Shown here: positions 18,247-53,143 of the stretch, piece by piece
How the letters are laid out: every line of letters begins with the position of its first letter
Position numbering within the stretch: position 1 is the stretch's first letter
DNA from: a virus
Direction: 5' to 3' (one strand)
Length of the DNA: 64,000 nt
Virus record (IMG/VR): IMGVR_UViG_3300013102_000030
Location: 96,001-160,000 of that record
The notes under the pieces: generated by a model
What the model was told of the DNA's origin: nothing
The model's database searches: none
What the model saw: the letters and a program-made list of their open reading frames with translations, nothing else
Made by a program: the position numbers and the translations under genes

Positions 18247-18567
18247 ATGACCACCGAAGTCATTGAGAAGGAACAAGAAGAGGCCACCGAAGTCTCCGAC
18301 GAACTCAAGGTCATCGAGCTTGAGGCCAACAGCAAGAAGTTTGAATTCGATACCCGCCATCGTTGTGACCACAGCGGTGTTGAAGGTACCAGCACGTCCT
18401 GCGGTGCACAGGCATATATCCGTGCCACGCTGAAGAACGGTGACACCCTCATCTTCTGCTCCCACCATGCCAACGAAGTAGAGGCCGCTCTGAAGCCGCT
18501 CTGCTCCGAATGGTACTCAGAGACCAGCCGCCTTGTCCATGACCGCAAGAAGGGATCAGAGAACTGA
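18247..18567 (+). CDS. Small actinobacterial Zn-binding protein
   Basis: RCD...CGAQAY...L.FC.HH motif; AAGGAG RBS. Confidence 0.8.
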   Translation: MTTEVIEKEQEEATEVSDELKVIELEANSKKFEFDTRHRCDHSGVEGTSTSCGAQAYIRATLKNGDTLIFCSHHANEVEAALKPLCSEWYSETSRLVHDRKKGSEN

Positions 18568-19391
18568 CCACGATACTATATCCCGGACCATCCGCTCCAA
18601 CGTACTTTCCTCACGTAGAGGGTCGCACCTTTGAAGAGGAACTGCTGAAAGGCTTGATTACTCCACCTGATATCAAGATCTACCTTGTAGGTGGAGCCGT
18701 ACGTGAGATCACCCGTGGATTCCCTGAGAAGGTCAAGGACTGGGATTTTGCTGTGGAGGCTCCGAGCTACGAAGGTATGAAGCAGTGGCTGGATCACAAG
18801 GGCTTTGAGATCTTCGTTGAGACTCCGCAGTACTTCACCATCCGCGCCCGAGCGCCCAAGGGACTCTTCAAGTTCGCTGGAATCGACATGTCACACAAGA
18901 CGTTCGACTTCACGCTCTGCCGCACTGAAGGTGAGTACTCAGACGGACGACGGCCTGATGAAGTCAAGCCCGGAACCCTGCTGGAAGATCTCTCGCGCCG
19001 TGACTTCACGATGAACGCAATGGCGCTGGATTCCCGTGGGACGGTCATAGATCCGTTTGGTGGTCAACAGGACATCAAGGATAAACTGATTCGTCTGGTA
19101 GGTGGTACAGACCGCCTGAAGGAGGACTCCTTGAGGATGCTCCGTGCCATCCGCTTTGCTGTCCAGCTTGACTTTGAGATGGATAATGATGTCTACGCCT
19201 TCCTCTTCAAGGAAGATAATGCAGAACTTCTGAAGAACGTTGACGAAAATCGAATCCGTGATGAACTCACCAAGTGCTTCAAGATCGACACGCTGGAAAC
19301 CCTGTGGATGCTCCAGAGCTTCCCTGCTATTGCGGACAGATGCTTCAGAGGAGACATCTGGCTCATGCCCACCGTCAAGGGAGCTAAGTGA
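18564..19391 (+). CDS. tRNA nucleotidyltransferase (CCA-adding/PAP class II); probable CTG start
   Basis: YLVGGAVR, D.D, EDL.RRDFT.NA, ED.LR.LRA.RF; frame open from CTG 18564 (CTGA overlap, GAAGGGA RBS); first canonical start is TTG 18654. Confidence 0.88.
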   Translation: MTTILYPGPSAPTYFPHVEGRTFEEELLKGLITPPDIKIYLVGGAVREITRGFPEKVKDWDFAVEAPSYEGMKQWLDHKGFEIFVETPQYFTIRARAPKGLFKFAGIDMSHKTFDFTLCRTEGEYSDGRRPDEVKPGTLLEDLSRRDFTMNAMALDSRGTVIDPFGGQQDIKDKLIRLVGGTDRLKEDSLRMLRAIRFAVQLDFEMDNDVYAFLFKEDNAELLKNVDENRIRDELTKCFKIDTLETLWMLQSFPAIADRCFRGDIWLMPTVKGAK

Positions 19392-19534
19392 CACCAGACC
19401 AAGAGCAAGAAAAACAAATCAACTACACTCAATTTCGACTTGACGAACTGAAGGTACGTCGTGATAAGATCGATGAAGAGATTGCCTACGAGCAGCGAGT
19501 GCTAGACAAGCTGCTCGGAGGAGTGGTAGAATAG
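19388..19534 (+). CDS. Small coiled-coil hypothetical protein (48 aa)
   Basis: GTGA overlap, AAGGGAG RBS. Confidence 0.65.
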   Translation: MTPDQEQEKQINYTQFRLDELKVRRDKIDEEIAYEQRVLDKLLGGVVE

Positions 19535-19580
19535 TGTAGTAAGTCCTCACCAGAGGAAACTACCACAGTAAGTGACAAAC

Positions 19581-20852
19581 ATGGCAACAACCGTAGTTCT
19601 GGACACATCCGTTCTCCTCTCCGCAGGAAGGACGGCACTGTATTCCTTTGGTGAAAACAACGTAGTCCTCCCCCTCGTAGTTGTAAGTGAGCTTGAGAAA
19701 AAGCGCAATGACCCGGATCTTGGTCTCGCGTCTCGCTCCGTTCTACGGGAGCTTGATATCCTCCGGTCACAGGGGGATTTGGCTAATGGAGTCTCCCTAG
19801 GGGAGGACTACGGCACACTTCGTGTTGAAATCAACAACACTCACAATGTACCACTCGCGGTTCAGAACCGTAAGACTAACGATGCCGAGATCATCACAGT
19901 AGCACACAACCTTGGACGATTCCAAACGGTTGTGCTGATCTCCAAGGATATTCCGATGAAGATCCTTGCCGACATCGTTGGTGTCGAGACAGCAGACTTT
20001 GTTCCGGCCAATATCTCCGGAGACTTCATCGATAAGACTGAGACCTACTGGGTAACGGCGGAAGAGATCAACCAGATTCACGAACACGGAACTGTCCGTC
20101 TGACTCTGGATGTGCCCCGCAACGTTGGTGTCATCCTTCGCTCCGAAGAGAATCCCAAGAATACAGCCCTTGCCATTGCAGGACCGGAGTTCAAGTTCAA
20201 CAAGGTTCAGTCCTTCAACGTTTCCGGACTTGAGTCCCGTTCCGCTGAGCAGGCTATCGCCATTGACTACCTGATGGATGATTCTGTCAAGATCGTCTCC
20301 CTTGGTGGCCGTGCCGGTACTGGTAAGACTACTCTAGCACTCGCTGCCGCCATTGAGCAACTACAACAGTACAAGAAGATCACGGTCTTCCGCTCCATGC
20401 ACGCTGTAGGTGGAGAAGAGCTTGGATTCCTCCCCGGATCTGAGGCTGAGAAGATGGACCCTTGGACTGCTGCAATCTACGATAGTCTAAACTCATTCCT
20501 CACACCGGCCCAGATCAATGCTCTGAAGACCAAGCAGGCCATTGAGGTTCTCCCGCTGACACACATCCGTGGACGTACGCTGAACAACTTCATCATCATT
20601 GATGAGGCCCAGAACCTTGAGCGTGCCACCATCCTCACAGCCCTCTCCCGTATGGGTAAGAACGCAAAGGCTGTCATGTCGTGGGATGTCTCCCAGCGAG
20701 ACAACTTCCGCGTAGGCCGACACGATGGTGTCTATGAGGTCACCAGCCGCCTACTGGGTGAAAAGCTGTTCGCCCATACGTCCCTCCAGAAATCAGAGCG
20801 CTCACCGGCAGCAGAGCTTGTTTCCCGCAAGCTGGATGATTTCGACATCTAA
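19581..20852 (+). CDS. phoH: PIN-PhoH (PhoH2-like) protein
   Basis: VLDTSVL PIN; GRAGTGKT, GFLPG, RGRT, DEAQN. Confidence 0.92.
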   Translation: MATTVVLDTSVLLSAGRTALYSFGENNVVLPLVVVSELEKKRNDPDLGLASRSVLRELDILRSQGDLANGVSLGEDYGTLRVEINNTHNVPLAVQNRKTNDAEIITVAHNLGRFQTVVLISKDIPMKILADIVGVETADFVPANISGDFIDKTETYWVTAEEINQIHEHGTVRLTLDVPRNVGVILRSEENPKNTALAIAGPEFKFNKVQSFNVSGLESRSAEQAIAIDYLMDDSVKIVSLGGRAGTGKTTLALAAAIEQLQQYKKITVFRSMHAVGGEELGFLPGSEAEKMDPWTAAIYDSLNSFLTPAQINALKTKQAIEVLPLTHIRGRTLNNFIIIDEAQNLERATILTALSRMGKNAKAVMSWDVSQRDNFRVGRHDGVYEVTSRLLGEKLFAHTSLQKSERSPAAELVSRKLDDFDI

Positions 20853-20861
20853 CCACTACCA

Positions 20862-20898
20862 CAGAGAAGCCATCGAGTCAAACTCGGTGGCTTTTTCT
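20862..20898 (+). terminator. Intrinsic terminator
   Basis: AGAAGCCATCGAG/CTCGGTGGCTTTTT. Confidence 0.75.
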
Positions 20899-20960
20899 GT
20901 ACCCGTATGGTAGAATAGGATGGACTAACTTTATGCTTCTTTACTCTTTAGGAATAGCCC

Positions 20961-21770
20961 GTGGCGCTACCAACAAACATTAGCTATGGCACAGTAGTAG
21001 GACAGTTCTTGGCCGCGATTCAAGACGGGCCTGACCCTGACAAGCTCCCAGAAGGTATCCCTATGAAGGGTACCGTCACTTTTGTGGCTTCTCCTGTCTA
21101 CGTTCTAGACTACACCGCCAACCCCAACCCTGTCACGATCCTCAAGACACCTATCACATGCTCTCTGGACTCAGAGGGCTATCTGTGTGCACCTTACTCA
21201 GCGTCTGACTCTCCTCTGTCTCGTGGAGTTCCGCTGATTGCTACGGACGATCCTGACATCCTGCCTATCGGCTGGACATGGAGTGTCATCTATAACCTCA
21301 CGGACCCGTACGGCAACCGAGCCAACCTGCCAACACAGAACATTGCTGTTCCATCCGGAGTCACTACTGACCTTACCACAGCAATGAACATTGCTGCTGC
21401 CAACGGCTCCATCATCACCAAGGGTGCCACCGGAGATCCCGGAGACCTTGTCGGAGTCACCAACGGAGGATCATGGGGAAGCTCCGTCACGCTTTCCGCG
21501 TACCCTCAGACCTACATCTCCACCCTGTCTGCCTCTGTCACGTCCCTGACGCTGCCTACAGAGGTCTATCCGAATGAGTCTGGAACAATCACCCTCGTAC
21601 TCACTCAGGACGCTACAGGAGGCCGTACAATCACGTGGCCTGCTTCCGTCAAGTGGCCTGAGGGAATTGCTCAGCAGCCAGCAGCGGCTGCAAATTCAAT
21701 TTCGGTGATTCATCTTCTTTGGACAGGAACAACATGGCTGGGAATGCTAGGAGGTAAGAGCTTTGCGTAG
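20961..21770 (+). CDS. Minor tail protein
   Basis: YGTVVG.F N-terminus, L.ATDD...P.GWTW, short GXX linker, LTQDATGGRTITWP. Confidence 0.75.
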   Translation: MALPTNISYGTVVGQFLAAIQDGPDPDKLPEGIPMKGTVTFVASPVYVLDYTANPNPVTILKTPITCSLDSEGYLCAPYSASDSPLSRGVPLIATDDPDILPIGWTWSVIYNLTDPYGNRANLPTQNIAVPSGVTTDLTTAMNIAAANGSIITKGATGDPGDLVGVTNGGSWGSSVTLSAYPQTYISTLSASVTSLTLPTEVYPNESGTITLVLTQDATGGRTITWPASVKWPEGIAQQPAAAANSISVIHLLWTGTTWLGMLGGKSFA

Positions 21771-24700
21771 AGACAACTTTGACAGCGGAAGTCAACCAGT
21801 CCGCAACCTTGCCTACATCCCAAGCTTTGAAGTTGCCAGCGGAACAGTCAACACCCGAACTAACCTGTACAAAGATCCTCACTGTGAGGGTGTCAGTGGG
21901 TCAGTAACTGTCCGTACAAACCTCTGCACAAACCCCGGACCACAGGCTGTAGGCGGAACCACAACAACCATCCGCACCAATCTAAGCACTAACTCACGTG
22001 GTGTCAGTGCCTTGCCCGACTACAACGGTGCTAGTTATCAGACCATCACTACAGTAACAGGGATAACAGGGCATCCGGAAGGCATCACGACTGCCAACCG
22101 AGTAAGCTACAATGCAGGGGCAACCAATCCGGGAGTAGCTCTGCTCAATCCTGCTCAAGCAAACACTAAGTACACGATTAGTGCATGGGTATACCACGAG
22201 ACCGTACCTCCAGCAGGAGGTCAAGCCTTCGCCATGGCAGGACTCACCAGCAGTACACCAACAACACCTGTAGCAGGGGTTTGGCAACGTTTGTCATGGA
22301 CCTACACTACCACAGCATCACCTAGTTACTTTGGTTTCCGTGTAGCATCTCCTACAGGATCAGGAAGCTTCCTCATCACCGGAATTCTCATTGAGAGGTC
22401 CGGATTTCTTGGTGACTTCTTTGACGGTGCAGGAGCCAGTAGAACCAATCTCGCCAATGATCCCCGCGCTCTAACCATTACTGGCACTACGGGAGTAGGA
22501 TGGCGCAATAGTCGTTGGTTCGGTGGGAACGGTACCACTGTCGGTACTCATACTAATATCACCGGTATGCAGGATGGACCTACACCGCAACTAACCACCT
22601 ATATCCGTAAGCAGTGGACTGGGGACAACCTCAGCACCAGTAACGGTGACACCGGATTTGAGTTGTCCACAGGCTTCAACACTACAGCAGGCGTAGCTTA
22701 TGCCGGAGGATGGAGTGTCCAAGCCGGTGTCACATACTCTCTTTCAGCATGGCTGCGCCCCACCAGTGATAAAGGTAATGCTGGATTTGATATGACGTGG
22801 AGAGATAGTGCAGGATACTATATCACACGAAGTACCTTCTCCACGTATACGCTTCCCGCGAACGTCTGGACCCGTGTCACTGCCACAGTAACCGCACCCT
22901 CAGGAGCGATCACAGCAGGTCTCGTATTGGACGTAGATGGCGGTTCGTTGTGGAAGTCAGGGGAATCTCTCGACGGCACTGGTCTCATCATTGAGCGCAC
23001 AGACACTCCCAGCACTATCTTTTATGAAGGAACTGGTGACTTCAGCTACTCATGGACAGGAACAGCCAACAATTCGGCCAGTATCCAGACCGCCGCAGGT
23101 ACTCCAGCTATCGGTGGAGCTAACAACGGAATAACGTACAGAAGTGGTATCTCAGGGAACTACTTTGCCCGAACTTTCTTCACCAGCGATCAGATCATGG
23201 ACAGTGGTCCGAGCCTTCAGGGTACAGCCCCCGGACTAACAGCCAGCAAGACCTATACCTTGTCTGTAGATGTATGGGTAGATCGAGACCGCACCTATAG
23301 ACTAAGCGTACAAGGGAACGGTACCACCAACACTAGCACCAGCTTTACGCAGACCGCAGGAACCACCGTCCGCAGAATCATCACATTCCAGACGAATGTG
23401 TCGGCTACAGGACCATCAAACGTTGCACTGTACGTGCTCCGTAGTGATGTGCTGCCCGGATATATTGATGTATCTAAAATCCTCATCGAAGAGGCCCCCC
23501 AAGCTCTTCCATATTTTGATGGTAGCAATCCTGTCCGTAATCTTGCGGCAGGCACTAACCCTTCTGCACTAAGTGGTATTACAATGACCTCTGGGGTCTC
23601 CTACAAAGGAGATACATGGAGGCGAGCCAGTGTTGCCGCAGGAAACAGTGGTTGGATTGTTAGACAATACGTCAATCTTTTCGACCTGATTCCGGGGCAA
23701 ACCTACACCGCAGCAGTCACCGTTGCCAATGACAGTACCGCTGATAGTGTAAGCATTGCGCTGGATTGGTGCGACACAGCAGCAACTACTGTTACACTTG
23801 CCCCCGGTGAGGTACGTCGCCTCAGGGTCACTAACAGTAAGGCATCCTACAGCAACGTATACCGGTTTGCCGACCTACAGGTAAACCAGAATACCGCAGG
23901 TAGCCGCAGTGTACTTTTCAAGGATTTCACTGTAGAGTTTGGTGCTACACCCGGCTATCAAGGCGCAGCAGATTACACTACCGCGTGGACTGGTGTAGTC
24001 AACGGCTCCACTAGTACGATGACGGCTCCGCTTCCCGGAGGGTGGTCTAAATCTGGCAACACTGTCGTCATCCCGACCACTGAGGGAATCAGCGGTAAAG
24101 GTATCAAAATCATCAAGAATGGAGGGTACGGATTCGTTGGAACCACTCTCAGCGGTCTAGCTGTAAGCACTGCCTACACATGGTCAGCGGATATTTTGAC
24201 GAGTCAGACCACTGTCAACACTGTGGACCGAAGCAGTCTCGTCGGCGGGTATAGCCCGAGTGACAGAACTGTCGTGTCCGATCTCGTGACCAGAATTCAA
24301 AGGACCTTTACCACTGGACCGAGTGAGACTACCAGAACCATCAGTATCGCTGGATGGGAGAATGCTACCGTGCCGGATGGCAGCATCCTTATCATCGACA
24401 ACATACAAGTAGAAGCTAACGGGCAGGCTACTCCCTTCTTCTCGGGAGACACACCAGCAGCTAATGAGTTCACCTACGCATGGACCGGAACTCAGCACGC
24501 CAGCACCAGCACCGAGACAGCACCGGGAGCCAGTGGATACACTGGATCATACAGCAACCGTATCGCATGGCAGTCTACCCAGTGGAGCGCCAGTGGTACC
24601 AAGAGCCTTGCAGTTGCCGGTGGTGCCCCATCACAGGACAGCTTCAGCCAGTTCGGACAGCCGTATCCATTCCCAGCGGACTTCGCCGGGAAGACTTACA

Positions 24701-25611
24701 CTATACTTGCCCGACTCCGTACTGAGGAAGCTTTCCCCGTAGGGGCAGACGGTCGAGCATGGGGCGTTCATATAGCCGTCAACACCACTGGGGCGCAGGT
24801 ATTTTTTAGCCTCCGTCCAAACAACTATAACACTCTTCCGGCAGGGGTCTATGAGGTCCGTCAAACTATCACCATGCCTGCCAATGCCACAAACATCTCT
24901 TTCATGAGATTCTATAACGGCAGTCCAAACCGGACAACCGTATGGTGGGACAACTTCATGGTGGTGGAAGGACGCTACGATGGAGGATATATCAACCCCG
25001 ACCAAAACCCCCTTGCCAAATGGGACGGTGCGGCGAACGTTAGCACAAGTGTAGGATATCCTCCTACCCTTCTTGAACTTGCCGGAAAACCTAGCCTTGA
25101 GTTGGTAGGGGAAGGCATCTCTCCTACGACTACAGTTGACGGTTTTGTTGCCAGAACGCTCTATGCTGTATACGAGGTAACAGATATCAACCAAGGTAGC
25201 TGGCAGGTTCCGATTATCTATGGAGTAGCAAGCAGTGAAGGATACACCCTTCAGTCCAACTCAGCAGGAACTATCCAGATGGTACCACGAGCAGACTTTG
25301 CTACTGGTGGCGGAAATACCAATGCCACCACTGGATTCAATACAAGGACTTCGGGCAGAGTCCATGTTATGGCTTTTGCCTTCAATGATGGCTTGACGAG
25401 CATGCTTGGAATGGGAAACGGAGCTACTGATGTACAAAGAACATTGGTACCCGGAACTGTTGGGTGGACTAAGCATAAGCTTGAAATCCGCCCCGCAGCC
25501 CAAGGTATGCGTGGTGTGTACGCGTCTGTGTATATGGGGGAGCATTCCCGAGCTACCCGATTGGCTATTAGCCGATATCTCGGAAATAAATATGGAGCAA
25601 ATGTCGCCTAG
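21763..25611 (+). CDS. Large minor tail/receptor-binding protein with about six CBM-like repeats
   Basis: Repeated RTNL..NP, Y.[LI]S.W, ...E...FDG and W.G...S.S motifs; Thr/Gly/Ser-rich. Confidence 0.8.
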   Translation: MRRDNFDSGSQPVRNLAYIPSFEVASGTVNTRTNLYKDPHCEGVSGSVTVRTNLCTNPGPQAVGGTTTTIRTNLSTNSRGVSALPDYNGASYQTITTVTGITGHPEGITTANRVSYNAGATNPGVALLNPAQANTKYTISAWVYHETVPPAGGQAFAMAGLTSSTPTTPVAGVWQRLSWTYTTTASPSYFGFRVASPTGSGSFLITGILIERSGFLGDFFDGAGASRTNLANDPRALTITGTTGVGWRNSRWFGGNGTTVGTHTNITGMQDGPTPQLTTYIRKQWTGDNLSTSNGDTGFELSTGFNTTAGVAYAGGWSVQAGVTYSLSAWLRPTSDKGNAGFDMTWRDSAGYYITRSTFSTYTLPANVWTRVTATVTAPSGAITAGLVLDVDGGSLWKSGESLDGTGLIIERTDTPSTIFYEGTGDFSYSWTGTANNSASIQTAAGTPAIGGANNGITYRSGISGNYFARTFFTSDQIMDSGPSLQGTAPGLTASKTYTLSVDVWVDRDRTYRLSVQGNGTTNTSTSFTQTAGTTVRRIITFQTNVSATGPSNVALYVLRSDVLPGYIDVSKILIEEAPQALPYFDGSNPVRNLAAGTNPSALSGITMTSGVSYKGDTWRRASVAAGNSGWIVRQYVNLFDLIPGQTYTAAVTVANDSTADSVSIALDWCDTAATTVTLAPGEVRRLRVTNSKASYSNVYRFADLQVNQNTAGSRSVLFKDFTVEFGATPGYQGAADYTTAWTGVVNGSTSTMTAPLPGGWSKSGNTVVIPTTEGISGKGIKIIKNGGYGFVGTTLSGLAVSTAYTWSADILTSQTTVNTVDRSSLVGGYSPSDRTVVSDLVTRIQRTFTTGPSETTRTISIAGWENATVPDGSILIIDNIQVEANGQATPFFSGDTPAANEFTYAWTGTQHASTSTETAPGASGYTGSYSNRIAWQSTQWSASGTKSLAVAGGAPSQDSFSQFGQPYPFPADFAGKTYTILARLRTEEAFPVGADGRAWGVHIAVNTTGAQVFFSLRPNNYNTLPAGVYEVRQTITMPANATNISFMRFYNGSPNRTTVWWDNFMVVEGRYDGGYINPDQNPLAKWDGAANVSTSVGYPPTLLELAGKPSLELVGEGISPTTTVDGFVARTLYAVYEVTDINQGSWQVPIIYGVASSEGYTLQSNSAGTIQMVPRADFATGGGNTNATTGFNTRTSGRVHVMAFAFNDGLTSMLGMGNGATDVQRTLVPGTVGWTKHKLEIRPAAQGMRGVYASVYMGEHSRATRLAISRYLGNKYGANVA

Positions 25612-25686
25612 GGGTTGACACGTTGTCTTTCTGTAGAGTATCGTAATTCTTATCAGGAACACCGATACTCTACAGAAGGGCACATC

Positions 25687-26544
25687 ATGAAAAAGATCGC
25701 AAGCACCGCAACCGCTGTACTCCTCGCCTCCTCGGGGCTTCTCTTCGTAGGGCAGGCCGCGAACGCCATGCCCTGTGACCTCCCCGGAGCAGGATGTACG
25801 GGTGACAGCAACACCGGCTATCCCGGAGGAGTCGCACCGACTCCCGATCCGGGGAAAGGACATGATCCTGTGACATTCTGCCACAACGGAATGCTGAAGA
25901 CAACTGACGACGACGGAGAACTCCATGGTCACAAGACCAAAAAGGGAGAGCACGTCAACGATGTCTTCCGCGAAGACCTTGGACGTGAGGTAACAGAAGC
26001 TGACTGTGCCGTCGTCACGGAACCGGTGAAGCCCCCTCAGCCTGCACCGGAGTTCCCGGAAGGCAACGTGGACATCACCTACCAGTGTGACGCGGTTCCC
26101 ATGACCCGAACCGATCACATCACCTACAAGCGGATCGACTACGTCTACGACGCTCCCAGCAATTCGTGGGTGAAGGGTCCGGAGCAGGTCACGGACGGGG
26201 TCTACGTCTTCCCGCTGACTGACGAGCAGGCGCAAACGTACTGCGGAGTTGCCGTCACCCCTCCCGTACAGGAGACTCCTCCGGCTGTGACTCCTGACGC
26301 TCCGGCTCCCGAACAGGCTGCACCGGAGGCTCCGGTAGCTCCTGCTGTCGTCCCTGCCGCTGAGCCTGCACCGCTGGCAAATCTCGGTGGACAGGTCCCT
26401 GCAAGCAACGTGGAGCAGGCAGCACAGACGCAGGCACCCGCCGAACTTGCCTACACGGGCTTCAACTGGGGAATGTTCGGAGCCGCGATCCTCTCGCTGC
26501 TTGGCGGATTCGGACTCATGCGGCTGAAGCGGAAGCTCGCATAA
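25687..26544 (+). CDS. Cell-wall-anchored surface protein (LAxTG sortase motif)
   Basis: Signal peptide AANA, Pro/Ala linker, LAYTG, TM helix, RLKRK tail. Confidence 0.8.
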   Translation: MKKIASTATAVLLASSGLLFVGQAANAMPCDLPGAGCTGDSNTGYPGGVAPTPDPGKGHDPVTFCHNGMLKTTDDDGELHGHKTKKGEHVNDVFREDLGREVTEADCAVVTEPVKPPQPAPEFPEGNVDITYQCDAVPMTRTDHITYKRIDYVYDAPSNSWVKGPEQVTDGVYVFPLTDEQAQTYCGVAVTPPVQETPPAVTPDAPAPEQAAPEAPVAPAVVPAAEPAPLANLGGQVPASNVEQAAQTQAPAELAYTGFNWGMFGAAILSLLGGFGLMRLKRKLA

Positions 26545-26552
26545 CTTCCACA

Positions 26553-26589
26553 AGGTAGACCCTCTCCTTCGGGAGAGGGTTTACTTTTT
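26553..26589 (+). terminator. Intrinsic terminator
   Basis: GACCCTCTCC-TTCG-GGAGAGGGTT followed by a T tract. Confidence 0.8.
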
Positions 26590-26615
26590 GCCCTGAAACT
26601 GCTAAGATGTACCGA

Positions 26616-27272
26616 ATGACCCAAAAAATCATTCTTGAAGCCGTCACTGGCTCAAAAGCCTACGGGCTGAATCACGCACAATCCGACACCGACAAGATGG
26701 GCATCTTCGTTGCCCCTACTGTACACGTAGCTGGCCTTGGATGGGCCTCAAAGCACGAGTCATGGTCCAATGCTGGACCGGAGGGTGATGACTACACCTT
26801 GCACGAGGTTGGCAAGTATCTCAAGCTTGTGCTAAAGTCGAACCCTACCCTTGTGGAACTGCTCTTCATCGACCAGTACGAGACTCTGACTGATGAAGGC
26901 AGAGCCATGATTGACCTTCGTGGGAAAGTCCTGTATACTAAGGGCATCCGCGAAGCCTACTATGGATACGCTAAGGCTCAGTACGAGCGTGTAATGAGGG
27001 AATACCCTCTCCATAAGCCCAAGATGGCACGACACTGTGTACGGATCGCCATTCAGGGGCATGAGCTTCTGACCACAGGGACCACGAACGTAAAGGTTCT
27101 TGACCCTCAATACCTGTTTGATCTGAATGACATGGGCCAAACAGATCTGTTCAACACTATGGCTAAGCATGTGCAATCCATTGATGATGCAAAATCTGTC
27201 CTTCGGGACGAACCAGACCGCAAGTCAGTTGCCGCGTTTCTGGAAGATATACGACGACAAAATCTAGGCTAA
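26616..27272 (+). CDS. RlaP-type (Pol-beta) nucleotidyltransferase
   Basis: GS.AYGL...SDTD.MGIF, NP..VE.L, K.A.H..R; leaderless ATG. Confidence 0.85.
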   Translation: MTQKIILEAVTGSKAYGLNHAQSDTDKMGIFVAPTVHVAGLGWASKHESWSNAGPEGDDYTLHEVGKYLKLVLKSNPTLVELLFIDQYETLTDEGRAMIDLRGKVLYTKGIREAYYGYAKAQYERVMREYPLHKPKMARHCVRIAIQGHELLTTGTTNVKVLDPQYLFDLNDMGQTDLFNTMAKHVQSIDDAKSVLRDEPDRKSVAAFLEDIRRQNLG

Positions 27273-27283
27273 GAAAGAAGGAA

Positions 27284-28666
27284 ATGAAGGGACTTGAACG
27301 CCTCAAGGGCACTCTGAAGGAGGATGGTGAATCCCGCAAGGAAGCCACATTCCTCTCACGGGATGTGCTTGAACTCGCTATGCTTGCAGCAACCGCAAGC
27401 AAGAACCCCAAGCTCGCCAAGGCGGTCACCATTGGCTCTGCTGCCATTACGGTAGGCACTCTCGCCAAGGATATCTGGAAGTTCTACAGGAAGTCCACAG
27501 CGGACGAAACCTACACCATCAAGATCATGGAAGATGACGGGATCTTTGAGGTTGTAGAAGACTGGTTCATGGAAGCTCTCCCTGAAGAGAAGCAGCGCTC
27601 CGTGTACGCACACTCAACTGTGCAGCGCCATGATCCTCATAGCCGTATGGCTGCTAGACTGGCGGCAGAGGAGGACCCTGAGAAGAAGGACAAGGTCAAG
27701 ATCAACTACTCCTTTGACGGGACAATCGTACAGCAGCTTGACATTGCAGGACAGAAGGTCTCCATCTGGATCTCAGTTCCCGAGCAGTCGGCCAAGAGTA
27801 CCGGCAGTGGAAAGAGCCTGCTCCAGCGCTCCATCAACATCATCTGCCCCACGGTGGAAGCCAAGAGGGCTATTCAGGAAGAACTGGACAAGCAGTCCCA
27901 GTTCCTTTCCAAGTCCCAGCCGCGCATGTTTGTCTCCAGCAAGTGGGGCAACTTCAACAAGCGCTCCCACATCCAGACGCGCTCCGTGGAATCGGTCATC
28001 CTCAAGGAAGGACAGATGGAGCGTATCCTTGGTTACCTGAACAGCTTCCTTGAAAACAAGGATGCCTATCTGAAGGCTGACCTTCCCTACCGCACGGGCA
28101 TCCTGCTCTACGGTGAACCGGGAAGTGGCAAGTCGTCAACCGCGCTGGCAATCGCCAACGAACTGCGGATGAACGTCTTCATCATCTCCCTGACCTCACT
28201 GGACAGCGACGATGCTCTGAATGAGTGCTTCTCATCCATCCCTCCGAACTCGATCATCATCCTTGAGGATATCGATATCGCTCACTCGGTCAAGGACCGT
28301 GATGAGGATGACGGTGTCACCATGACCGGCATGCTGAACGTGCTGGACGGCTTCCAGTCCCCTCCGGGAGTCATCACCATCATGACCACCAACCGCCTTG
28401 ACGTACTGGATGAGGCAATCATCCGTCCGGGCCGCGTGGATCTTCAGGAGGAACTGAACTGTCTGGATACCCACCAGCTTTCCCGAATGTGTGAGTACTT
28501 CACCGGATCGGTTCCCGAGAACCTTCCGGAGATCACCCCTGCCGATGGTATCACGTCGGCTGAGATTGTGGGTGTTGTGCGGAAGCATCTTCCCAACTTT
28601 GAGAACGCTGGTGAGGACATTGTAACTTTTGTAAGTGACAAGCTCTTGACACCAGCCGCAGCATAG
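27284..28666 (+). CDS. BCS1-like AAA+ ATPase
   Basis: YR.GILLYG.PGSGKSS, LEDID, G.LN.LDG, MTTN, RPGRVD; N-terminal hydrophobic segment. Confidence 0.85.
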   Translation: MKGLERLKGTLKEDGESRKEATFLSRDVLELAMLAATASKNPKLAKAVTIGSAAITVGTLAKDIWKFYRKSTADETYTIKIMEDDGIFEVVEDWFMEALPEEKQRSVYAHSTVQRHDPHSRMAARLAAEEDPEKKDKVKINYSFDGTIVQQLDIAGQKVSIWISVPEQSAKSTGSGKSLLQRSINIICPTVEAKRAIQEELDKQSQFLSKSQPRMFVSSKWGNFNKRSHIQTRSVESVILKEGQMERILGYLNSFLENKDAYLKADLPYRTGILLYGEPGSGKSSTALAIANELRMNVFIISLTSLDSDDALNECFSSIPPNSIIILEDIDIAHSVKDRDEDDGVTMTGMLNVLDGFQSPPGVITIMTTNRLDVLDEAIIRPGRVDLQEELNCLDTHQLSRMCEYFTGSVPENLPEITPADGITSAEIVGVVRKHLPNFENAGEDIVTFVSDKLLTPAAA

Positions 28667-28739
28667 AGTAGGCTACCGCTTTACATAAAAGCTGTCATAG
28701 TGTAGAATGGAAGACATAAGTTTCTATCGAAGGACACTA

Positions 28740-29024
28740 ATGTCTTCTACTGCTGACGCAACCCCCACATATAACTGGCTGGTCCACTACCAGTTTTCCT
28801 TCCCCAAGTCAGACCTCCGTCCAGAGGATCAGCGCTGGGGTACGGGCACCATTCCCATCCAAACGGATAAGGTTCCTGAAACTAAGGAAGAGTTCAAAGA
28901 AATTGCCAGAACCATCGGCAAAGAAGGTGGCTACGAGCGCGTAGCAATCACCAAGCTAGATGTAACCGATCACTTCGTTGAAGATAAGGCAGAGATCCTA
29001 GAAGGACTCATTGTCAATGACTAA
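28740..29024 (+). CDS. Hypothetical protein
   Basis: AAGGA RBS. Confidence 0.7.
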   Translation: MSSTADATPTYNWLVHYQFSFPKSDLRPEDQRWGTGTIPIQTDKVPETKEEFKEIARTIGKEGGYERVAITKLDVTDHFVEDKAEILEGLIVND

Positions 29025-29445
29025 CGAAAATTGGATCAAAGACGCGCCTTGTGCCCGACCTGTAAAGACGGATGACTCTGAAGAGCCTCGTATGATCGAG
29101 TTCTACAGTAGTGACCCGGAAGAGCAGAATCGGGCCAAGGCCGTCTGTGTTACATGCCCCTTCCGTCGTGAATGCCTTCAGTACGCGTACGATGGCAAAG
29201 AACGTTTCGGAGTCTGGGGAGGCGTAGGAGGGGAAGAGCTACGCAAGAATCAGGCCATCAATGCTCTTGGAGAAGCACACGTCTCCAAGCTGGGAAAGAT
29301 CCGCTGTGCTTTCTGCGGTCCTCGTACTACGGACCAGCTAGAGGTAGTGGAGCGAAAGCGTACCCGAACGCACGTCATGTGCTCAGAGTGCGGCCTTTCG
29401 TGGACCGTCCGCAAGGCGATCAATAAGAAGGAAACCAACTGGTAG
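29017..29445 (+). CDS. whiB: WhiB-family transcription factor with C-terminal zinc ribbon
   Basis: C...AKAVC..CP...EC, GVWGG; then C..CG...C..CG..W. Confidence 0.9.
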   Translation: MTNENWIKDAPCARPVKTDDSEEPRMIEFYSSDPEEQNRAKAVCVTCPFRRECLQYAYDGKERFGVWGGVGGEELRKNQAINALGEAHVSKLGKIRCAFCGPRTTDQLEVVERKRTRTHVMCSECGLSWTVRKAINKKETNW

Positions 29446-29508
29446 ATTGACACTGACGCGTCCTACCAGTACAATGTACACGCAAATTACAAGATAAAAA
29501 GGTAGGAC

Positions 29509-31605: not shown

Positions 31606-31619
31606 AGGAAAAAGTCTAA

Positions 31620-32903
31620 GTGCGAGTACAACTCTCCGATGTTCACGGAGATATCAAGATCGATGCCTCACAGGCGGTGAGCTTCCTCAAGGCATGGTTC
31701 AATCCGGATGACGTGATCTCCCTCGTGGGACGGGCATCCGAAAAGAAGGGCAAGCTGGATACCCTCTCCCAGTTCGTACCCGTCAAGGATCTTTACTCCC
31801 TCACGAATGAGGATCTGGACTCACTGGTTTTCTCTGACGGTGAGAAGTGGAACCTCTATTTCGGTGCTGCTCCCGTCAAGGAAGCTGTCTCCCTGTTCCG
31901 TCGTGGAACTGAGGACAACATAGCACGGTTGGTAGGGGTTTGGGCTGATATCGATGTGAAGGAGGGCGGGTTCAATTCTCAGGATGAGATCCTGCTCTTC
32001 CTTCAGACCCTTGCGCTCCAGCCTACCATTGTGGTAGCATCAGGTTCTGGAGGCATTCACGCCTACTGGAAGCTGGATGAGAAGTCATCCGCAGCAGGCA
32101 AGACCCGTGAGACCTACAAGGAACTCACTCTTCGCTGGTGGGCCTACATCGATGACGCAGCAGGAGAATCCCGCAAGATCGACCGTCTCTATGACCTGAC
32201 CCGAATCTTCCGGCTTCCCGGAAGTGCGTACTTCCCTCGTGAAGGTTCCGGAGGAAAGGCAGGCAGTGTCCGTCTTCTCTCTGTGAACTCCAACGTCTAC
32301 TCCGCTGAGCAGATCCTGTCAATCTCACAGGCTGCTCACGTGAAGAAGGAAGAGGAACGCAAGCGCGTTGCCATGGAAGACAAGCAGCTTCGTGAGCGGA
32401 CCATCGGTGAAGCCATGCGGCAGGTCAAGCTGGGCCACGGCTATAAGTTTGAGGAGTATCAGAACTGGTCCGATGTCATGGCGTATGCTGAGATTGAGGA
32501 CTACGTCAACACCAGCTATACGTGGGACTTCCTGAGGGATTACGGCTGGACATTCCTGCGGACTCTGCGGGACGGCTCCGATGAGTGGGCGCGTCCGGGA
32601 CGAAACGAACGCTCTGCGGTGGTCAACTACCGTGAAGATGACAGGGGACCGGCATCACCGGTCATGAGCCTGCTGTCCATGTCCGATGAAACCGGACTGC
32701 TGGATCTGTTCGATGCCAACGTACCTTTGACCAAGTTCAGAGTCATGCTACGCTACAAATATCAGGACAATGGGCTTGCCATGGTCGATGACATGCGGGA
32801 TGAAGTTGTGTCCTTCATGAAGGCCAAGGAAGTAGCCCTCAAGCAGGAACAGGTCTACGCGCAGTACGCGCTCAATCTCACCAATCAATTCAGGAAGGCA
32901 TAA
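31620..32903 (+). CDS. RepB-like/AEP DNA primase
   Basis: WADID, SGSGG.H.YW, R.FRLPGS, W.RPG. Confidence 0.75.
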   Translation: MRVQLSDVHGDIKIDASQAVSFLKAWFNPDDVISLVGRASEKKGKLDTLSQFVPVKDLYSLTNEDLDSLVFSDGEKWNLYFGAAPVKEAVSLFRRGTEDNIARLVGVWADIDVKEGGFNSQDEILLFLQTLALQPTIVVASGSGGIHAYWKLDEKSSAAGKTRETYKELTLRWWAYIDDAAGESRKIDRLYDLTRIFRLPGSAYFPREGSGGKAGSVRLLSVNSNVYSAEQILSISQAAHVKKEEERKRVAMEDKQLRERTIGEAMRQVKLGHGYKFEEYQNWSDVMAYAEIEDYVNTSYTWDFLRDYGWTFLRTLRDGSDEWARPGRNERSAVVNYREDDRGPASPVMSLLSMSDETGLLDLFDANVPLTKFRVMLRYKYQDNGLAMVDDMRDEVVSFMKAKEVALKQEQVYAQYALNLTNQFRKA

Positions 32904-32905
32904 CC

Positions 32906-36583: not shown

Positions 36584-36868
36584 ATGTCAGAACTGTCCGG
36601 TGAAAAGATCGAGCGACTTCTCTGGAAGGCAGGGTGCGAAGTTGAACACAACGACGGCTTGGAAGAGATCAGCCCGATCAAGGTGACTGTGGGGGACACC
36701 GTAGTTATCATCTCGGAAGCATGGTTCGAAGAGGGAGAGTGGTTCGTTGACACTGACACCCTCACGCTGGATAAGCTGGTAGAGGGTGAGAAGGTCGATG
36801 AGGACTTGGACTTCATTGACACGGAGGAAGACCTCGTGGAACACATCCTGAAGCTGGGAGGGGAATGA
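36584..36868 (+). CDS. Very acidic small protein
   Basis: D/E-rich sequence. Confidence 0.7.
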   Translation: MSELSGEKIERLLWKAGCEVEHNDGLEEISPIKVTVGDTVVIISEAWFEEGEWFVDTDTLTLDKLVEGEKVDEDLDFIDTEEDLVEHILKLGGE

Positions 36869-37032
36869 AAGGCTCAATCGTCCGTATAGCTCCCAAGTTT
36901 CCCATGCCCACCGGCTACGAGCGCAGGGGCAAGGTCATCGGAGAGAATGAGACCTCAGTCGTTGTCCAGATCGAAGACAAGCCTGTGTCCATCCTCGTCC
37001 GCAAGACCCACATTGCCGTGATGTCGGCATGA
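36865..37032 (+). CDS. Small SH3/KOW-like protein (55 aa, MKGSIVRI...)
   Basis: GGAGGGG RBS; ATGA overlaps at both ends. Confidence 0.65.
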   Translation: MKGSIVRIAPKFPMPTGYERRGKVIGENETSVVVQIEDKPVSILVRKTHIAVMSA

Positions 37033-38271: not shown

Positions 38272-38383
38272 ATGTTGGTAGCCAGTAAATCCCCTCCTAG
38301 TTTACTGGCGAACGATCCGGTTTGGTACCCGGATCGGGGAAGTCCCGCAGTTGTAGCCTTTGCTCCTGCGGGACTTCTTTTTT
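38272..38383 (+). ncRNA. Putative three-hairpin sRNA with anti-SD loop
   Basis: Stems 38281-38309, 38313-38336 and 38339-38377 followed by T6. Confidence 0.65.
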
Positions 38384-38424
38384 GACCAAAATCTCTAACA
38401 GAAACAACAAGTAAAGGATCTATC

Positions 38425-38675
38425 ATTTCCACTGCAACCATCTCCGCTCCTGCTGCCACTGCCGATCAGGAAGTGCTGCACACCACGTCTGTAAGCTGGT
38501 AGCCAACACCAGCAACTGGCGCAAAGTCGCCAAGGATCTCATCGGTGATGAGCCTGTGACGTACGCTGAGCGGTCCAAGAAGGACACCCTGAGGAAGTTC
38601 CCCATCATCAACATCTCCTCCTCCGACAAGGAAGCTCTGGATCGCGTGTTGACAAAGGCAGCAGAGGTCGAATAG
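38425..38675 (+). pseudogene. Small gene with ATT/ATC start and an apparent -1 frameshift near 38481
   Basis: AAAGGA RBS; frame A ISTATISAP...VLH stops at 38502; frame B (HVCKL...AEVE*) has no canonical start near its 5' end. Confidence 0.45.
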
Positions 38676-47709: not shown

Positions 47710-47864
47710 GCTTACGACAGGAGATCGCTGAAGCACTGTACAACCACTGGAGGAGTTCCGACAGTGAACTCAAAGTGTCGTGGGCCGATGCTCCCGACAA
47801 CCTGCGTGGTGTCTTTCTCCGACAGGCCGACGTGGTTGAGAAGGTGATCGATGGCGGGTCCTGA
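47703..47864 (+). CDS. Small hypothetical protein
   Basis: GGAGG RBS, GTG start; IAEALY...W...F...AD. Confidence 0.6.
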   Translation: MVSLRQEIAEALYNHWRSSDSELKVSWADAPDNLRGVFLRQADVVEKVIDGGS

Positions 47865-48051
47865 GGAGAAGATACGCAAAGTTCTTGAAGAGCACGAGGC
47901 ATACACCGTTATCCGGTACAAGGACAACGACGCTGACAATCGTGTAGGCTATCAGTGCAGATGCGGAGAAGAGGATGCTCCCGATGGAGAACTCTGGGGC
48001 CGATCATGGCTCATCAACCACCAGACGACAGAAATTGTCAAAGTACTATAA
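47851..48051 (+). CDS. Small protein (C.CG...HQ)
   Basis: AAGG RBS. Confidence 0.65.
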   Translation: MAGPEEKIRKVLEEHEAYTVIRYKDNDADNRVGYQCRCGEEDAPDGELWGRSWLINHQTTEIVKVL

Positions 48052-48067: not shown

Positions 48068-48901
48068 ATCGCTAATCATACTTTCGCACTAAATGACCTT
48101 GTCCACGTCACGCGTGGATTCTACAAGGGACAGGCTGGCCGGATCATCTCCAAGAGCCTGAACTCCGTCTCCATCAAGTCCTCGCAGGGAATTGTCACGG
48201 TGAACGTCGGAGATGTGGCCGCAGGGTCTTCACCGATCCCCATTCCTCCGGCAGAGAACGTCTACCCGTTCAAGCCCGGACAGACCGTCAGGGTCAACCG
48301 CAGGACCAGCCAGCACGACGGGAAGTCCGCCATTTATCTTGGCCCCGATCCGGATTACTCTGCCATTGCACGAGTACGTCTGGCAATGTCTCCCTACACC
48401 ATTGTCACGTTCTACTTCAGTGATCTGGTGGAAGTTCCTGAAGTCACGGCCAAGCCGAAGGAAGCTCCTTTCCTTTCAACCACCAGCCGCGTTGAAGGCA
48501 AGCAGATCCATTTTGATGATGTGAAGATCGGTGATACGATTACATCAACGCGCACCTACAAGAGCGGTGACGTGGAGACATCGGTTATCCATACGGGTGT
48601 CGTCTCCAAGCGTGGCTTCTCGGGTCTGTACACCAGTGACTCAAACTGCATCAACCCTCGGGGCACTGAAACCCTGACGCTGGTCAAGGCCGCTGTGGAG
48701 AAGGACGAACTGCTGGAGACGCTGAAGAGCTTCCAGTCCAATACGGTTCTGGTGTTCAGTACTTCTGTCACGTTCTCCTACACGGCTGTGAAGACCGGCC
48801 AGAGTTGGATTCTGACAGCATCTTCTGGCTCCACCCGAACCATCACCAGCGGTAAGCTCCGAGAGATCATCGGAAACCGCAAGTACACCAAAGTCAACTA
48901 A
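48068..48901 (+). CDS. Multi-KOW/SH3-like protein; probable ATC start
   Basis: Three barrel motifs (D.V.V..G.YKG..G; F.PG..V.V; I.FDDVK.GD.I). Confidence 0.75.
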   Translation: MANHTFALNDLVHVTRGFYKGQAGRIISKSLNSVSIKSSQGIVTVNVGDVAAGSSPIPIPPAENVYPFKPGQTVRVNRRTSQHDGKSAIYLGPDPDYSAIARVRLAMSPYTIVTFYFSDLVEVPEVTAKPKEAPFLSTTSRVEGKQIHFDDVKIGDTITSTRTYKSGDVETSVIHTGVVSKRGFSGLYTSDSNCINPRGTETLTLVKAAVEKDELLETLKSFQSNTVLVFSTSVTFSYTAVKTGQSWILTASSGSTRTITSGKLREIIGNRKYTKVN

Positions 48902-48922
48902 CAAACGAAAGGTCCACACTTT

Positions 48923-49789
48923 ATGACTATCAAAATTGGCGATTACATCCGCGTAGACATTGACAACGAATGGCTCCGCTCCGGCTGGCAGGGCATGGAA
49001 GGCGTTGTCACGGGCTTCTACCAGTCGTGGTCTGACAAGCAGCCGCTGGTCCAGTTCAAGGTCACCAAGGAAGCTCCCGGAGGCTCCTCATCCCGCAAGG
49101 TCGGTGACGTGGTCAACGACATGGGCCTGCGTCAGCCCAAGGTCAAGGTTCTCTCGTCCAAGTTCAAGCTCGGTGACCGTGTCAAGTACGTCGATCCCAT
49201 GTACTTCTCCTCCTACAACCCGATTGACTACGAGATCGTAGATTTCGTTCATGCATACGACGGCCTGTACCACGTTCGGTGCGCTGAGATCCGGAATGGC
49301 TCCCGTACCGGTCTGATTCACACTCACGGTCAGAAGGAACTGGCGCTCGCTCCCAAACAGCCCAAGGAGGGTGATGAAGTCTTCCTGAAGGACATCAAGG
49401 AGGGACAGACCATCCGGATCTCCGGTACCCGCCACGGTATCAAGATCGTCCGTGAGGCTGTCGTTGGATCGATCTCCGAGTACGGCATCTACTCTCACGA
49501 TGGCTCGCGGATCGACCACACCGGAGTCCAGTGGAAGTACGTTCTGGTCAAGGAAGCACCGGAGAAGGGTCCGAAGAAGGAGACGCTGAGCAAGATCGCC
49601 AATCTTCCCGGACATCACGTCGTCTACCAGAGTGGCAACGGCCACTTCGTGCAGGCCCTTACGAAGATCGGTGGTGAGTGGTCATGGCTTCACGTCAAGC
49701 CGCGCAACTCCGGTACCGAAATCGTGACCAACAAGGAAGTCGCTGAAGCCCTTGAGGCCGGTGCAGTGATCCTGAAGCCTGCCTCCTAA
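48923..49789 (+). CDS. Multi-KOW/SH3-like protein
   Basis: IKIGD.IRV, FKLGDRV, LKDIKEGQTIRI. Confidence 0.8.
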   Translation: MTIKIGDYIRVDIDNEWLRSGWQGMEGVVTGFYQSWSDKQPLVQFKVTKEAPGGSSSRKVGDVVNDMGLRQPKVKVLSSKFKLGDRVKYVDPMYFSSYNPIDYEIVDFVHAYDGLYHVRCAEIRNGSRTGLIHTHGQKELALAPKQPKEGDEVFLKDIKEGQTIRISGTRHGIKIVREAVVGSISEYGIYSHDGSRIDHTGVQWKYVLVKEAPEKGPKKETLSKIANLPGHHVVYQSGNGHFVQALTKIGGEWSWLHVKPRNSGTEIVTNKEVAEALEAGAVILKPAS

Positions 49790-51689: not shown

Positions 51690-52102
51690 TCAAGATCCGC
51701 AAGAAGGCTATTGCAGCCGCAGCCGTTGCACTGGTAGGTGCAGCCGCCCTGACCGCCTGTGGTCCGGGTACCTCAGACCGCGACATGGCAAACAAGAACA
51801 TGTCCACCGCAGCGGACAACTTTGAGATCACCCGCCACATCGTAGGCATCAACGGCATCACCGACAAATACCTCTTTGAGGTTGTCGGCAAGTGCTCCAT
51901 CAACGATCAGGGCAACCAGCTTGAGGTCTTGTGTAAGGAAGGGAACAACCAGTACAAGAAGTACATGATGGGTATCTCTGACAACGTGACCTACATGGTT
52001 ACTCCGCTGGACAACACCGACGTTTCGGTCACTCACACCCGCGTGATCTTCAAGCCGGAAACCCTCATCCCCGAAATCGAACTCTCTCTCGGAAAGCAGT
52101 AG
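51686..52102 (+). CDS. Lipoprotein
   Basis: Lipobox LTAC; N.S.AADNFE..R.IV.INGITD. Confidence 0.85.
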   Translation: MIKIRKKAIAAAAVALVGAAALTACGPGTSDRDMANKNMSTAADNFEITRHIVGINGITDKYLFEVVGKCSINDQGNQLEVLCKEGNNQYKKYMMGISDNVTYMVTPLDNTDVSVTHTRVIFKPETLIPEIELSLGKQ

Positions 52103-52105
52103 AAC

Positions 52106-52531
52106 TTGACAAACACATCAGCATGGGAAACCATTACCTTTGACCAGATCAAGATTGGTGACAAGATCCGCACCGTCTCCAAGGAGCCGGATGGTACCAA
52201 GCGAACCATTGTAGGTACCGCAAAGAGCAAGTCCACCATGTGGCGAGCGTACTACTCAGATGGTGGCAACACTCTGGTAGACGCTGACAACAAGTACTTG
52301 GTCTCGCTTGAACGCAAGCGCACGGATGTCTTCGTGCTTCCGAAGCGCGTTGCTGCCGTCGTTGAGGCTGTGCGTATCTCCTCAGGTGAAACGACCCGCC
52401 TTGTGCTGGCCGATCCGGAGGATGAGGACAAGTGGCATGACGTGGTCAACCAGTCGTGGATGAGTGATGACGAAGTGAAGAGCCGTTACCGCTCCCACAA
52501 GGTCATCAGCAAGGGGGTCAAGAATGCCTAA
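52106..52531 (+). CDS. Two-domain I.F.DIK.GD family paralog
   Basis: ITFDQIKIGDKIR; FVLPKRVAAVV. Confidence 0.8.
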   Translation: MTNTSAWETITFDQIKIGDKIRTVSKEPDGTKRTIVGTAKSKSTMWRAYYSDGGNTLVDADNKYLVSLERKRTDVFVLPKRVAAVVEAVRISSGETTRLVLADPEDEDKWHDVVNQSWMSDDEVKSRYRSHKVISKGVKNA

Positions 52532-52973
52532 TCCCGAGAAGTGGGAAGGGATCACCTTTGACGAGATCAAGAAGGGTGATGAAATCCGCTGCATCATCAC
52601 TGATGAAGGCGGATACCGCACTGACACCCGTGGATTTGCCAACGAATACAAGGCAGGCTATCCGGGACCGCGCTGGGTTCATGGCAGCGGCTGGGTAGCA
52701 GCCCGTAAGGAAGGCACCGGCACCAGTAAGTCAACCTTCTACCGGAAGAAACCGCCGCCGTTCGTCTTCCCGCAGAAGTCCCTTGCTGTGATCGAAGGAT
52801 ACAACAGGGGTGTGGGATCTCGGGTCAAGCTGTTCAAGCCTGTCCGCTCCCAACGAAGCAGGGAGAACGTCTGGCTCCCCGTCAATCCTGAAGGTGTCAG
52901 TTCCCGGTACACCGAGGAATACATCATCGGGTGGTCTGACCTGAAGGTACTGCACGAAGGCGTAGACCTCTGA
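52524..52973 (+). CDS. Two-domain I.F.DIK.GD family paralog
   Basis: ITFDEIKKGDEIR; FVFPQKSLAVI. Confidence 0.8.
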   Translation: MPNPEKWEGITFDEIKKGDEIRCIITDEGGYRTDTRGFANEYKAGYPGPRWVHGSGWVAARKEGTGTSKSTFYRKKPPPFVFPQKSLAVIEGYNRGVGSRVKLFKPVRSQRSRENVWLPVNPEGVSSRYTEEYIIGWSDLKVLHEGVDL

Positions 52974-53143
52974 GTGTACAGCCCGGAGAAGGCATTCATG
53001 ATCCCAGAGCCGAATGGGACACCTGCATAGCCGTCAAAGGCGAACACATTTGCTGGCGGCGACATGGACATGAGCGTGATCATGGCTGTGCCTGTGGTGA
53101 AGATTGGCCCTACGGAATAGGACACGACGAATACGACTGGTAG
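52970..53143 (+). CDS. Small Cys/His Zn-binding protein; CTG start; absent from the ORF track
   Basis: C...GEH.C...HGH...H.C.CG..W; CTGA overlap; no ATG/GTG/TTG anywhere in the frame; terminator follows immediately. Confidence 0.7.
   Translation: MSVQPGEGIHDPRAEWDTCIAVKGEHICWRRHGHERDHGCACGEDWPYGIGHDEYDW

Follow-up and report, generated by a model that had tools for sequence, protein, structure and literature searches.

The window analysed here is a 64,000-nucleotide (nt) stretch of virus DNA (bases 96001-160000 of the 174,136-bp IMG/VR virus record IMGVR_UViG_3300013102_000030), and it raises the question of whether a phage can start a set of its genes at codons other than ATG, GTG or TTG (hereafter canonical codons). 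A first-pass annotation of the window had placed six gene starts at the near-cognate codons ATC, ATT or CTG, all of which we found where it had put them, and had proposed that the phage tunes or times expression through start-codon identity, possibly by relaxing initiation fidelity during infection. From comparison with related phages, we consider it probable (about three chances in four) that, in a clade of large Arthrobacter-type phages, a subset of genes begins at near-cognate codons, as gene-specific weak starts of the kind known from infC and pcnB of Escherichia coli. At least five to eight genes in this one actinophage clade are affected, cases lying in stop-start overlaps included.

Near-cognate codons at the start columns of homologous genes

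The window derives from a large Arthrobacter-type phage (record G000) with 30 tRNA genes in its genome. Its nearest named relatives by DNA are the Arthrobacter globiformis phages Mimi, Racecar and Talia1610 (~75% identity), and a relationship with phage Atuin surfaces at the protein level. Our comparison set comprised Atuin, Mimi, the complete metagenomic genome G003 (168.6 kb with terminal repeats), and the fragments L005-L009 and L017-L020. Alignment of homologues from these phages, a check that had been proposed together with the six starts, placed the near-cognate codons at the start columns of the homologues and showed that cultured, annotated phages share them. In the HNH, Cys/His-rich, NAMPT and DUF3307 genes of this phage, the stretch from the preceding in-frame stop to the conserved N-terminus is free of canonical codons, as it is in the small open reading frame (ORF) that follows the primase gene in Mimi, L008 and G003 (Table 1).

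The HNH-type gene has the layout previously described, with an in-frame TGA (33707-33709), four codons, and then ATC 33722, preceded by GAAAGG (33708-33713) and an 8-nt spacer. Its first in-frame canonical codon, ATG 33941, is located 3' of the conserved core. Near-cognate codons occupy the start column in five of six lineages (ATC in this phage and Atuin, ATA in L007, ATT in L008 and G003), and the sixth, Mimi, has an ATG aligned with our ATC, from which gp197 is annotated. Atuin reads ATC ACT GT... as this phage does, and its HNH ORF is intact and unannotated (L011:40560). An in-frame stop stands 3-6 codons upstream of the start column (15 in L007), and the near-cognate lineages have no canonical start before the core. 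The ratio of non-synonymous to synonymous substitution rates (dN/dS) was 0.05-0.16 in pairwise comparisons, with synonymous sites near saturation, and the pairs compared include some that lack a canonical start on both sides. Because the ratio is low even between such lineages, we infer that the protein is made in them, with initiation presumably at the near-cognate codon itself. The gene owes its HNH name to tblastn, which gave 456 actinophage matches, many of them annotated 'HNH endonuclease'. Neither a sigma-70-like promoter nor a canonical terminator was found directly upstream of the gene.

The post-primase ORF shows ATC 32906 after AGGAAGG, as had been reported, with 7 nt between them, and ATG 32927 follows seven codons further 3'. 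Its start column is ATC or ATT in all eight lineages, behind a Shine-Dalgarno (SD) sequence and directly after the preceding gene (ATC in this phage, G003, L007 and L008, ATT in Mimi, ATC ATC in Atuin, and ATC ATT in L005, L006 and L009). The residues between the near-cognate codon and ATG 32927 are conserved across lineages (I-x-K-x-Y-D/N...), and the column of ATG 32927 itself holds no canonical codon but CTC or CTG in Mimi, L008 and G003, Mimi having none before a mid-ORF GTG. The proportion of non-synonymous differences (pN) was lower than that of synonymous differences (pS) in every pair.

Two genes outside the window belong to the same group. NAMPT has ATT at the start column in four of four genomes, behind GAAAGG in this phage, Atuin and Mimi and behind AAAGG in G003. 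Its first ATG is located 3' of the DSYK motif (LNPLLDTDSYKLSH motif), whose Tyr we take to be the active-site Tyr18. Read from the ATT, the N-terminus is collinear with that of solved NAMPTs (PDB chains), its residues 6-44 pairing with their residues 7-45. The protein matches PF18127 and PF04095 (NAMPT_N and NAPRTase), the NAMPT_N model beginning before the first ATG, and pN was 0.15 against a pS of 0.43 over 496 codons. The gene is annotated in Mimi from an upstream TTG and in Atuin from a downstream ATG (record 27200), with loss of the conserved N-terminal motif. The DUF3307 gene has ATC at the start column in both genomes compared (this phage and G003), and no canonical codon precedes its conserved N-terminus.

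In the Cys/His-rich ORF, the whole frame from 52940 to 53143 is devoid of ATG, GTG and TTG, and both the CTGA overlap and the terminator that had been noted after it are present, the latter as a terminator-like hairpin with a T tail. In the alignment, CTG 52970 falls on the GTG from which Atuin gp264 is annotated, itself in a GTGA overlap. Cys and His positions are retained, and pN was 0.32 against a pS of 0.78. Atuin gp264 (record 164677-165000, L015:4678-5001) contains the Cys/His domain twice, duplicated in tandem, and this phage has it once. A large protein database yielded no homologue candidates for this ORF, and Mimi and G003 carry no copy.

A further family, represented here by the ORF at 36865, has a single stop-start overlap column in which the start codon changes between lineages, with ATG in this phage, GTG in Atuin, L006 and L009, TTG in L007, CTG in Mimi and ATT in G003, giving the overlaps ATGA, GTGA, TTGA, CTGA and ATTAA. 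Atuin's member is annotated from an internal GTG. In Mimi, the copies of the post-primase ORF and of the 36865 family are both unannotated (L003:38540 and L003:42097).

Table 1. Genes and other features discussed in the text, with their candidate start codons. Coordinates are those of the window unless marked G000 (full record); aa, amino acids.
Feature	Coordinates	Strand	Start codon and context
CCA-adding / poly(A)-polymerase-family gene	18564..19391	+	Possible CTG 18564; alternatives TTG 18654 (canonical) and CTG 18645
Small ORF after primase gene, 45 aa	32906..33043	+	Most likely ATC 32906; SD AGGAAGG 32892-32898
HNH-type endonuclease gene, 94 aa	33722..34006	+	Most likely ATC 33722
Small ORF, comparison family	36865..37032	+	ATG in ATGA overlap
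Small conserved gene f	38422..38675	+	Possible ATT 38425 or ATC 38422 after AAAGGA
Protein of unknown family, 277 aa	48068..48901	+	Probable ATC 48068; AAAAGGG 8 nt upstream
Cys/His-rich ORF, 57 aa	52970..53143	+	CTG in CTGA overlap (52970-73) with stop of ORF 52524-52973; GAAGG 9 nt upstream
Terminator-like hairpin with T tail	53152..53178 (hairpin 53152-53168)	+	Directly 3' of Cys/His-rich ORF
NAMPT gene, outside window	G000 24512-26032		ATT 24524 behind SD
DUF3307 gene, outside window	G000 22480-22911		ATC 22489; Pfam model begins before first ATG

Genes with a canonical alternative

For three of the six genes, a canonical start is an option as well. For the 277-aa gene, ATC 48068 is present, and the KOW motif that had been placed directly behind it was not confirmed by Pfam; ATG 47975, ATG 47984 and TTG 48035 lie upstream in frame. 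The gene upstream (47851-48051) is real, being conserved to its last residues in Atuin. No relatives of the 277-aa gene were found in IMG/VR, and a large protein search gave three homologues (P0002-P0004, 41-45% identity) whose first Met falls 0-2 residues from the ATC column, that of P0002 exactly on it. We therefore lean, by a little, towards ATC 48068 as the start.

For the CCA-enzyme gene, the CTGA overlap at 18564, the GAAGGGA and the 30 added codons are as first described. The overlap is with the stop of ORF 18247-18567, GAAGGGA stands 8 nt upstream, and TTG 18654 comes 30 codons after the CTG. All relatives have a junction codon that shares the reading frame of the enzyme core: CTG in Atuin (CTGA overlap), ATG in G003 and L019 (MTTII... 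against LTTIL... in this phage), and ATT in Mimi, L020 and L017/18 (ATTAA overlap); in L017/18, no canonical start precedes the YLVGG core. Relative to the upstream gene, the enzyme frame is offset differently in the CTGA and the ATTAA type, and it is open in both, which argues for translation starting at the junction. Another candidate, CTG 18645, aligns with an ATG of L019 and L020 and stands 4 nt behind a GAGGA motif. On balance, CTG 18564 is a plausible start to which we would give somewhat less than an even chance.

Gene f carries ATC 38422 and ATT 38425 after AAAGGA, as claimed, and its frame as written in the window ends at TAG 38500. With one C restored behind 38492, a single frame results (...TSVKLVAN...), as in all relatives. 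Because the additional C is found in the contig of the source run, the frame break is an assembly artefact. A programmed -1 frameshift was considered as its cause and ruled out, the record simply missing one C. The column of ATT 38425 is TTG in Mimi, Atuin, L007, L008 and G003, and reads ATC ATC ATT in L006 and L009, where no canonical codon precedes the core. The odds that gene f starts at ATT or ATC appear to us evenly balanced. Directly upstream of the gene, the window holds three hairpins (38260-38385), the last followed by a T run, and contigs of related runs show small indels at 38292, 38310 and 38315.

Ribosome-binding sites and start-codon usage

SD sequences were scored as exact matches to the anti-SD complement AGAAAGGAGG, requiring at least 5 nt at an aligned spacing of 3-9. 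Such matches precede 38% of 130 annotated Mimi and Atuin starts and 4.6% of random positions. The ATC or ATT sites of the HNH gene, NAMPT, gene f, DUF3307 and the 277-aa gene all have 5-6-nt matches at spacings of 4-7, and none was found for the rival canonical codons (the ATGs of NAMPT and DUF3307, ATG 32927 and TTG 48035). The sites of the HNH gene, the 277-aa gene and gene f had been picked partly for their ribosome-binding sites, so that only NAMPT and DUF3307, found by conservation, are independent tests of SD usage.

TTG starts had also been listed as part of the relaxed code. All ten coordinates given are indeed TTG, in long ORFs with SD-like motifs. TTG accounts for ~15% of annotated starts in relatives (24 of 168 in the Mimi half-genome, 10 of 67 in the Atuin segment), and its use is ordinary for the clade: frequent but canonical, and already annotated. 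GTG is found at 24 of 168 annotated starts in Mimi and 5 of 67 in Atuin, TTG being as common or commoner.

Most genes have canonical starts that align with canonical starts of relatives. A crude scan for alignments extending 5' of the first canonical start picked up many genes, almost all of them artefacts (stops in the subject, or alignments of one canonical start with another). Scoring of gaps by codon usage revealed no further start-less gene in the window, a measure that is uninformative for an ORF as short as the Cys/His-rich one. Outside the window, two overlapping frames at G000 48334-49052 show conservation with Atuin, Mimi and G003 that begins at the first open codon; from this overlap and conservation, the locus looks like a tail-assembly-chaperone -1 frameshift pair and not like a start-codon issue.

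Reliability of the record

The record was compared with second assemblies of its probable source run (Logan contigs at 167-179x for the HNH, CCA-enzyme, post-primase and f sites, Logan contig L061 for the Cys/His-rich and 48068 sites) and with an ENA assembly of the same phage. Over 18540-38539, three differences separate the Logan contigs from the window, one at 31087, one at 36634 and the third an extra C behind 38492, which is present in contigs of three runs, the source run among them at 167x. Further substitutions relative to the Logan or ENA assemblies occur at 4675, 6965, 8102, 9003, 49817, 50316, 53667 and 58246, and the differences together amount to ~1 per 2-3 kb. The ENA assembly also has a C at 8856/8857 that is absent from the window. 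At that position, a second HNH endonuclease gene (8649-9178, like Mimi gp169 and Atuin gp160) is split into ORFs 8649-8861 and 8858-9178, and the additional C re-joins them into an intact gene of 171 aa with Pfam HNH; as the ENA assembly has the intact gene, the split is a record error or a variant. Single-base features of the IMG/VR record need comparison with a second assembly.

Alternative explanations

Given such errors, which include the missing C at 8856/8857, the one behind 38492 and several substitutions, the near-cognate codons might themselves have been produced by sequencing or assembly of a metagenome-derived record. We give this practically no weight, since all six start sites are identical in the window and in the independent assemblies of the source run, no difference between assemblies touches any of them, and cultured Atuin and Mimi show the same codons. 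More serious is the possibility that the true starts are nearby ATG, GTG or TTG codons and the near-cognate triplets are internal or untranslated, and it is here that several points count against near-cognate initiation. For the CCA enzyme, TTG 18654 is a canonical option aligned with an ATG in Atuin and Mimi, the N-terminal extension shows little conservation, the long form does not reach the Pfam head domain until residue 39, and the junction codon is constrained by the ...EN* ending of the upstream gene. Corrected gene f has an in-frame GTG 38473 near the short-form start of L008, though with a poor SD. For the 277-aa gene, the upstream canonical codons could be used with an overlap of 17-77 nt with the upstream gene (68-77 nt from ATG 47975 or 47984, 17 nt from TTG 48035, the gene caller's choice, P0001). 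To these must be added that the 94-aa 'HNH' protein matched no Pfam family at E<=0.01, so that its name is not backed by a profile, and that the logic of weak expression and IF3 is borrowed from E. coli, the host here being Arthrobacter. Nevertheless, a nearby canonical start is impossible for the HNH gene and the Cys/His-rich ORF, would drop conserved family residues from NAMPT and DUF3307, and has no equivalent of our ATG 32927 to use in the post-primase ORF of Mimi, L008 and G003; the canonical candidates also lack SD matches. As an account of the whole set, it is therefore improbable. That the codons are decayed starts of dead or dying genes might be suggested by the ATG of the Mimi HNH gene and by the free turnover of start codons in the 36865 family, but the ORFs are intact in every lineage, the HNH gene, NAMPT and the Cys/His-rich ORF are under purifying selection, and A and T are constant in the start column with a varying third base, all of which makes decay very unlikely.

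A different explanation of the same codons is that the phage actively relaxes start-codon fidelity in infection, by a change in IF3 activity or an initiator tRNA of its own, and switches on the genes with AUH (AUA, AUC or AUU) or CUG starts at a set time. The share of near-cognate starts is in fact high, at ~2-5% of phage genes, when E. coli uses them in ~0.1-0.2% of its genes. The genome, however, yielded no IF3_C or IF1 match, and its S21 match, at 11.9 bits, stays below the cut-off. The sole tRNA-Met(CAT) (window 1762-1843) lacks the bacterial initiator signature (C1xA72, G29-31:C39-41); it measures 82 nt and has mismatched U1xC72, a long variable arm and a T stem that is weak, and its syntenic counterparts in Atuin, Mimi and G003 measure 77-78 nt and have U1:A72 and the anticodon stem CUGGC/GCCAG. 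This unusual tRNA may be an elongator, of the Ile2 type or initiator-like, and no clear initiator character is evident. The tRNA-Ile(GAT), for its part, is of the ordinary elongator kind. With most genes also keeping canonical starts aligned with those of relatives, the phage-wide relaxation envisaged by the first-pass annotation finds no support in the genome, and we consider it unlikely. The same holds for the more specific idea that genes with AUH or CUG starts make up a set that senses IF3, switched on together by a shift in the IF3:ribosome ratio or by the phage-supplied tRNA-Met(CAT) acting as initiator, which is a long shot; if true, start-codon identity would be a timing device in the phage for the HNH nuclease, NAMPT, the CCA enzyme and small membrane proteins.

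Proposed mechanism and implications

Under the preferred reading of gene-specific weak starts, near-cognate codons would be used in two settings. In one, an SD-led AUC, AUU or AUA stands ~4-8 nt behind GAAAGG, AAAGGA or AAGGA, as may be the case for the HNH gene, the post-primase ORF and the 277-aa gene and, outside the window, NAMPT and DUF3307. In the other, CUG or AUU lies in a stop-start overlap (CTGA, ATTAA) at which ribosomes ending the upstream gene would re-initiate, as proposed for the Cys/His-rich ORF and for the relatives' members of the 36865 family, and perhaps also for the CCA-enzyme gene. The SD would position the 30S subunit, the initiator tRNA would pair with two of the three codon bases, and IF3 would reject most such complexes, leaving low, IF3-dependent translation by analogy with E. 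coli infC and pcnB, to which re-initiation by terminating ribosomes probably adds at the CTGA and ATTAA overlaps.

Retention of the weak codon instead of its replacement by ATG suggests selection for, or at least tolerance of, a low output of the proteins concerned (nucleases, nucleotide-handling enzymes and small membrane proteins). ATG occurs in only 1 of ~20 lineage observations of the HNH, post-primase, NAMPT and DUF3307 families, although it is one mutation away, which speaks for strong starts not being favoured; as the lineages lack phylogenetic independence, this is an argument and not a test. What the sequences show is the codons themselves, their conservation, the lack of canonical alternatives, purifying selection and the placing of the SD; initiation at these codons, insertion of formylmethionine and low output are inferred from them. 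Tuning of expression through start-codon identity, the milder part of the original proposal, is thus a reasonable reading, given the conserved near-cognate starts and purifying selection, with the qualification that the CCA enzyme and gene f have credible canonical alternatives.

Because ATG, GTG and TTG are the only starts allowed when actinobacteriophages are annotated, real genes are missing or shortened in the deposited genomes of the clade: the HNH gene is absent from Atuin, the post-primase and 36865-family ORFs from Mimi, and the N-terminus of NAMPT is cut in Atuin. A clade with ~2-5% weak starts, with Atuin, Mimi and their host in culture, also offers a natural system in which to study how start codons are policed by the actinobacterial ribosome and IF3, and to ask whether a phage exploits this policing to set or time protein output.

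Comparison with known systems

Near-cognate starts are of a known kind; what is new here is the number of genes concerned in one actinophage clade, their conservation, and the consequences for annotation. In our literature searches, no paper came up that describes near-cognate starts for this clade of phages. Translation from near-cognate codons is held down by IF3 (PMC2268962, citing Sacerdot 1996), an excess of which inhibits non-canonical starts as well as re-initiation lacking an SD (PMC2268962). As in E. coli infC, which starts at AUU, the phage genes have a near-cognate AUH start behind an SD that has been retained in evolution over AUG. Unlike infC, which forms an autoregulatory loop of IF3, they are enzymes and small proteins with no feedback evident.

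In E. coli pcnB, which encodes poly(A) polymerase I and also starts at AUU, the weak start limits a nucleotidyltransferase that is harmful in excess (translational control of this gene is treated in PMC2939334). The phage CCA enzyme resembles it in belonging to the same Pfam head-domain family (PF01743) and in having relatives with ATT at the junction; it differs in that its junction codon is CTG, with TTG 30 codons 3', so that its weak start is only a candidate. Lastly, the Cys/His-rich ORF, the CCA-enzyme junction and the 36865 family lie in overlaps that recall the common NTGA type of coupling (ATGA, GTGA, TTGA). In E. coli, initiator tRNA is used for re-initiation too, a process that is IF3-sensitive (PMC2268962), and a near-cognate codon in an overlap should therefore be weak as well. 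The phage overlaps depart from the usual NTGA coupling in that the start within them is CTG or ATT.

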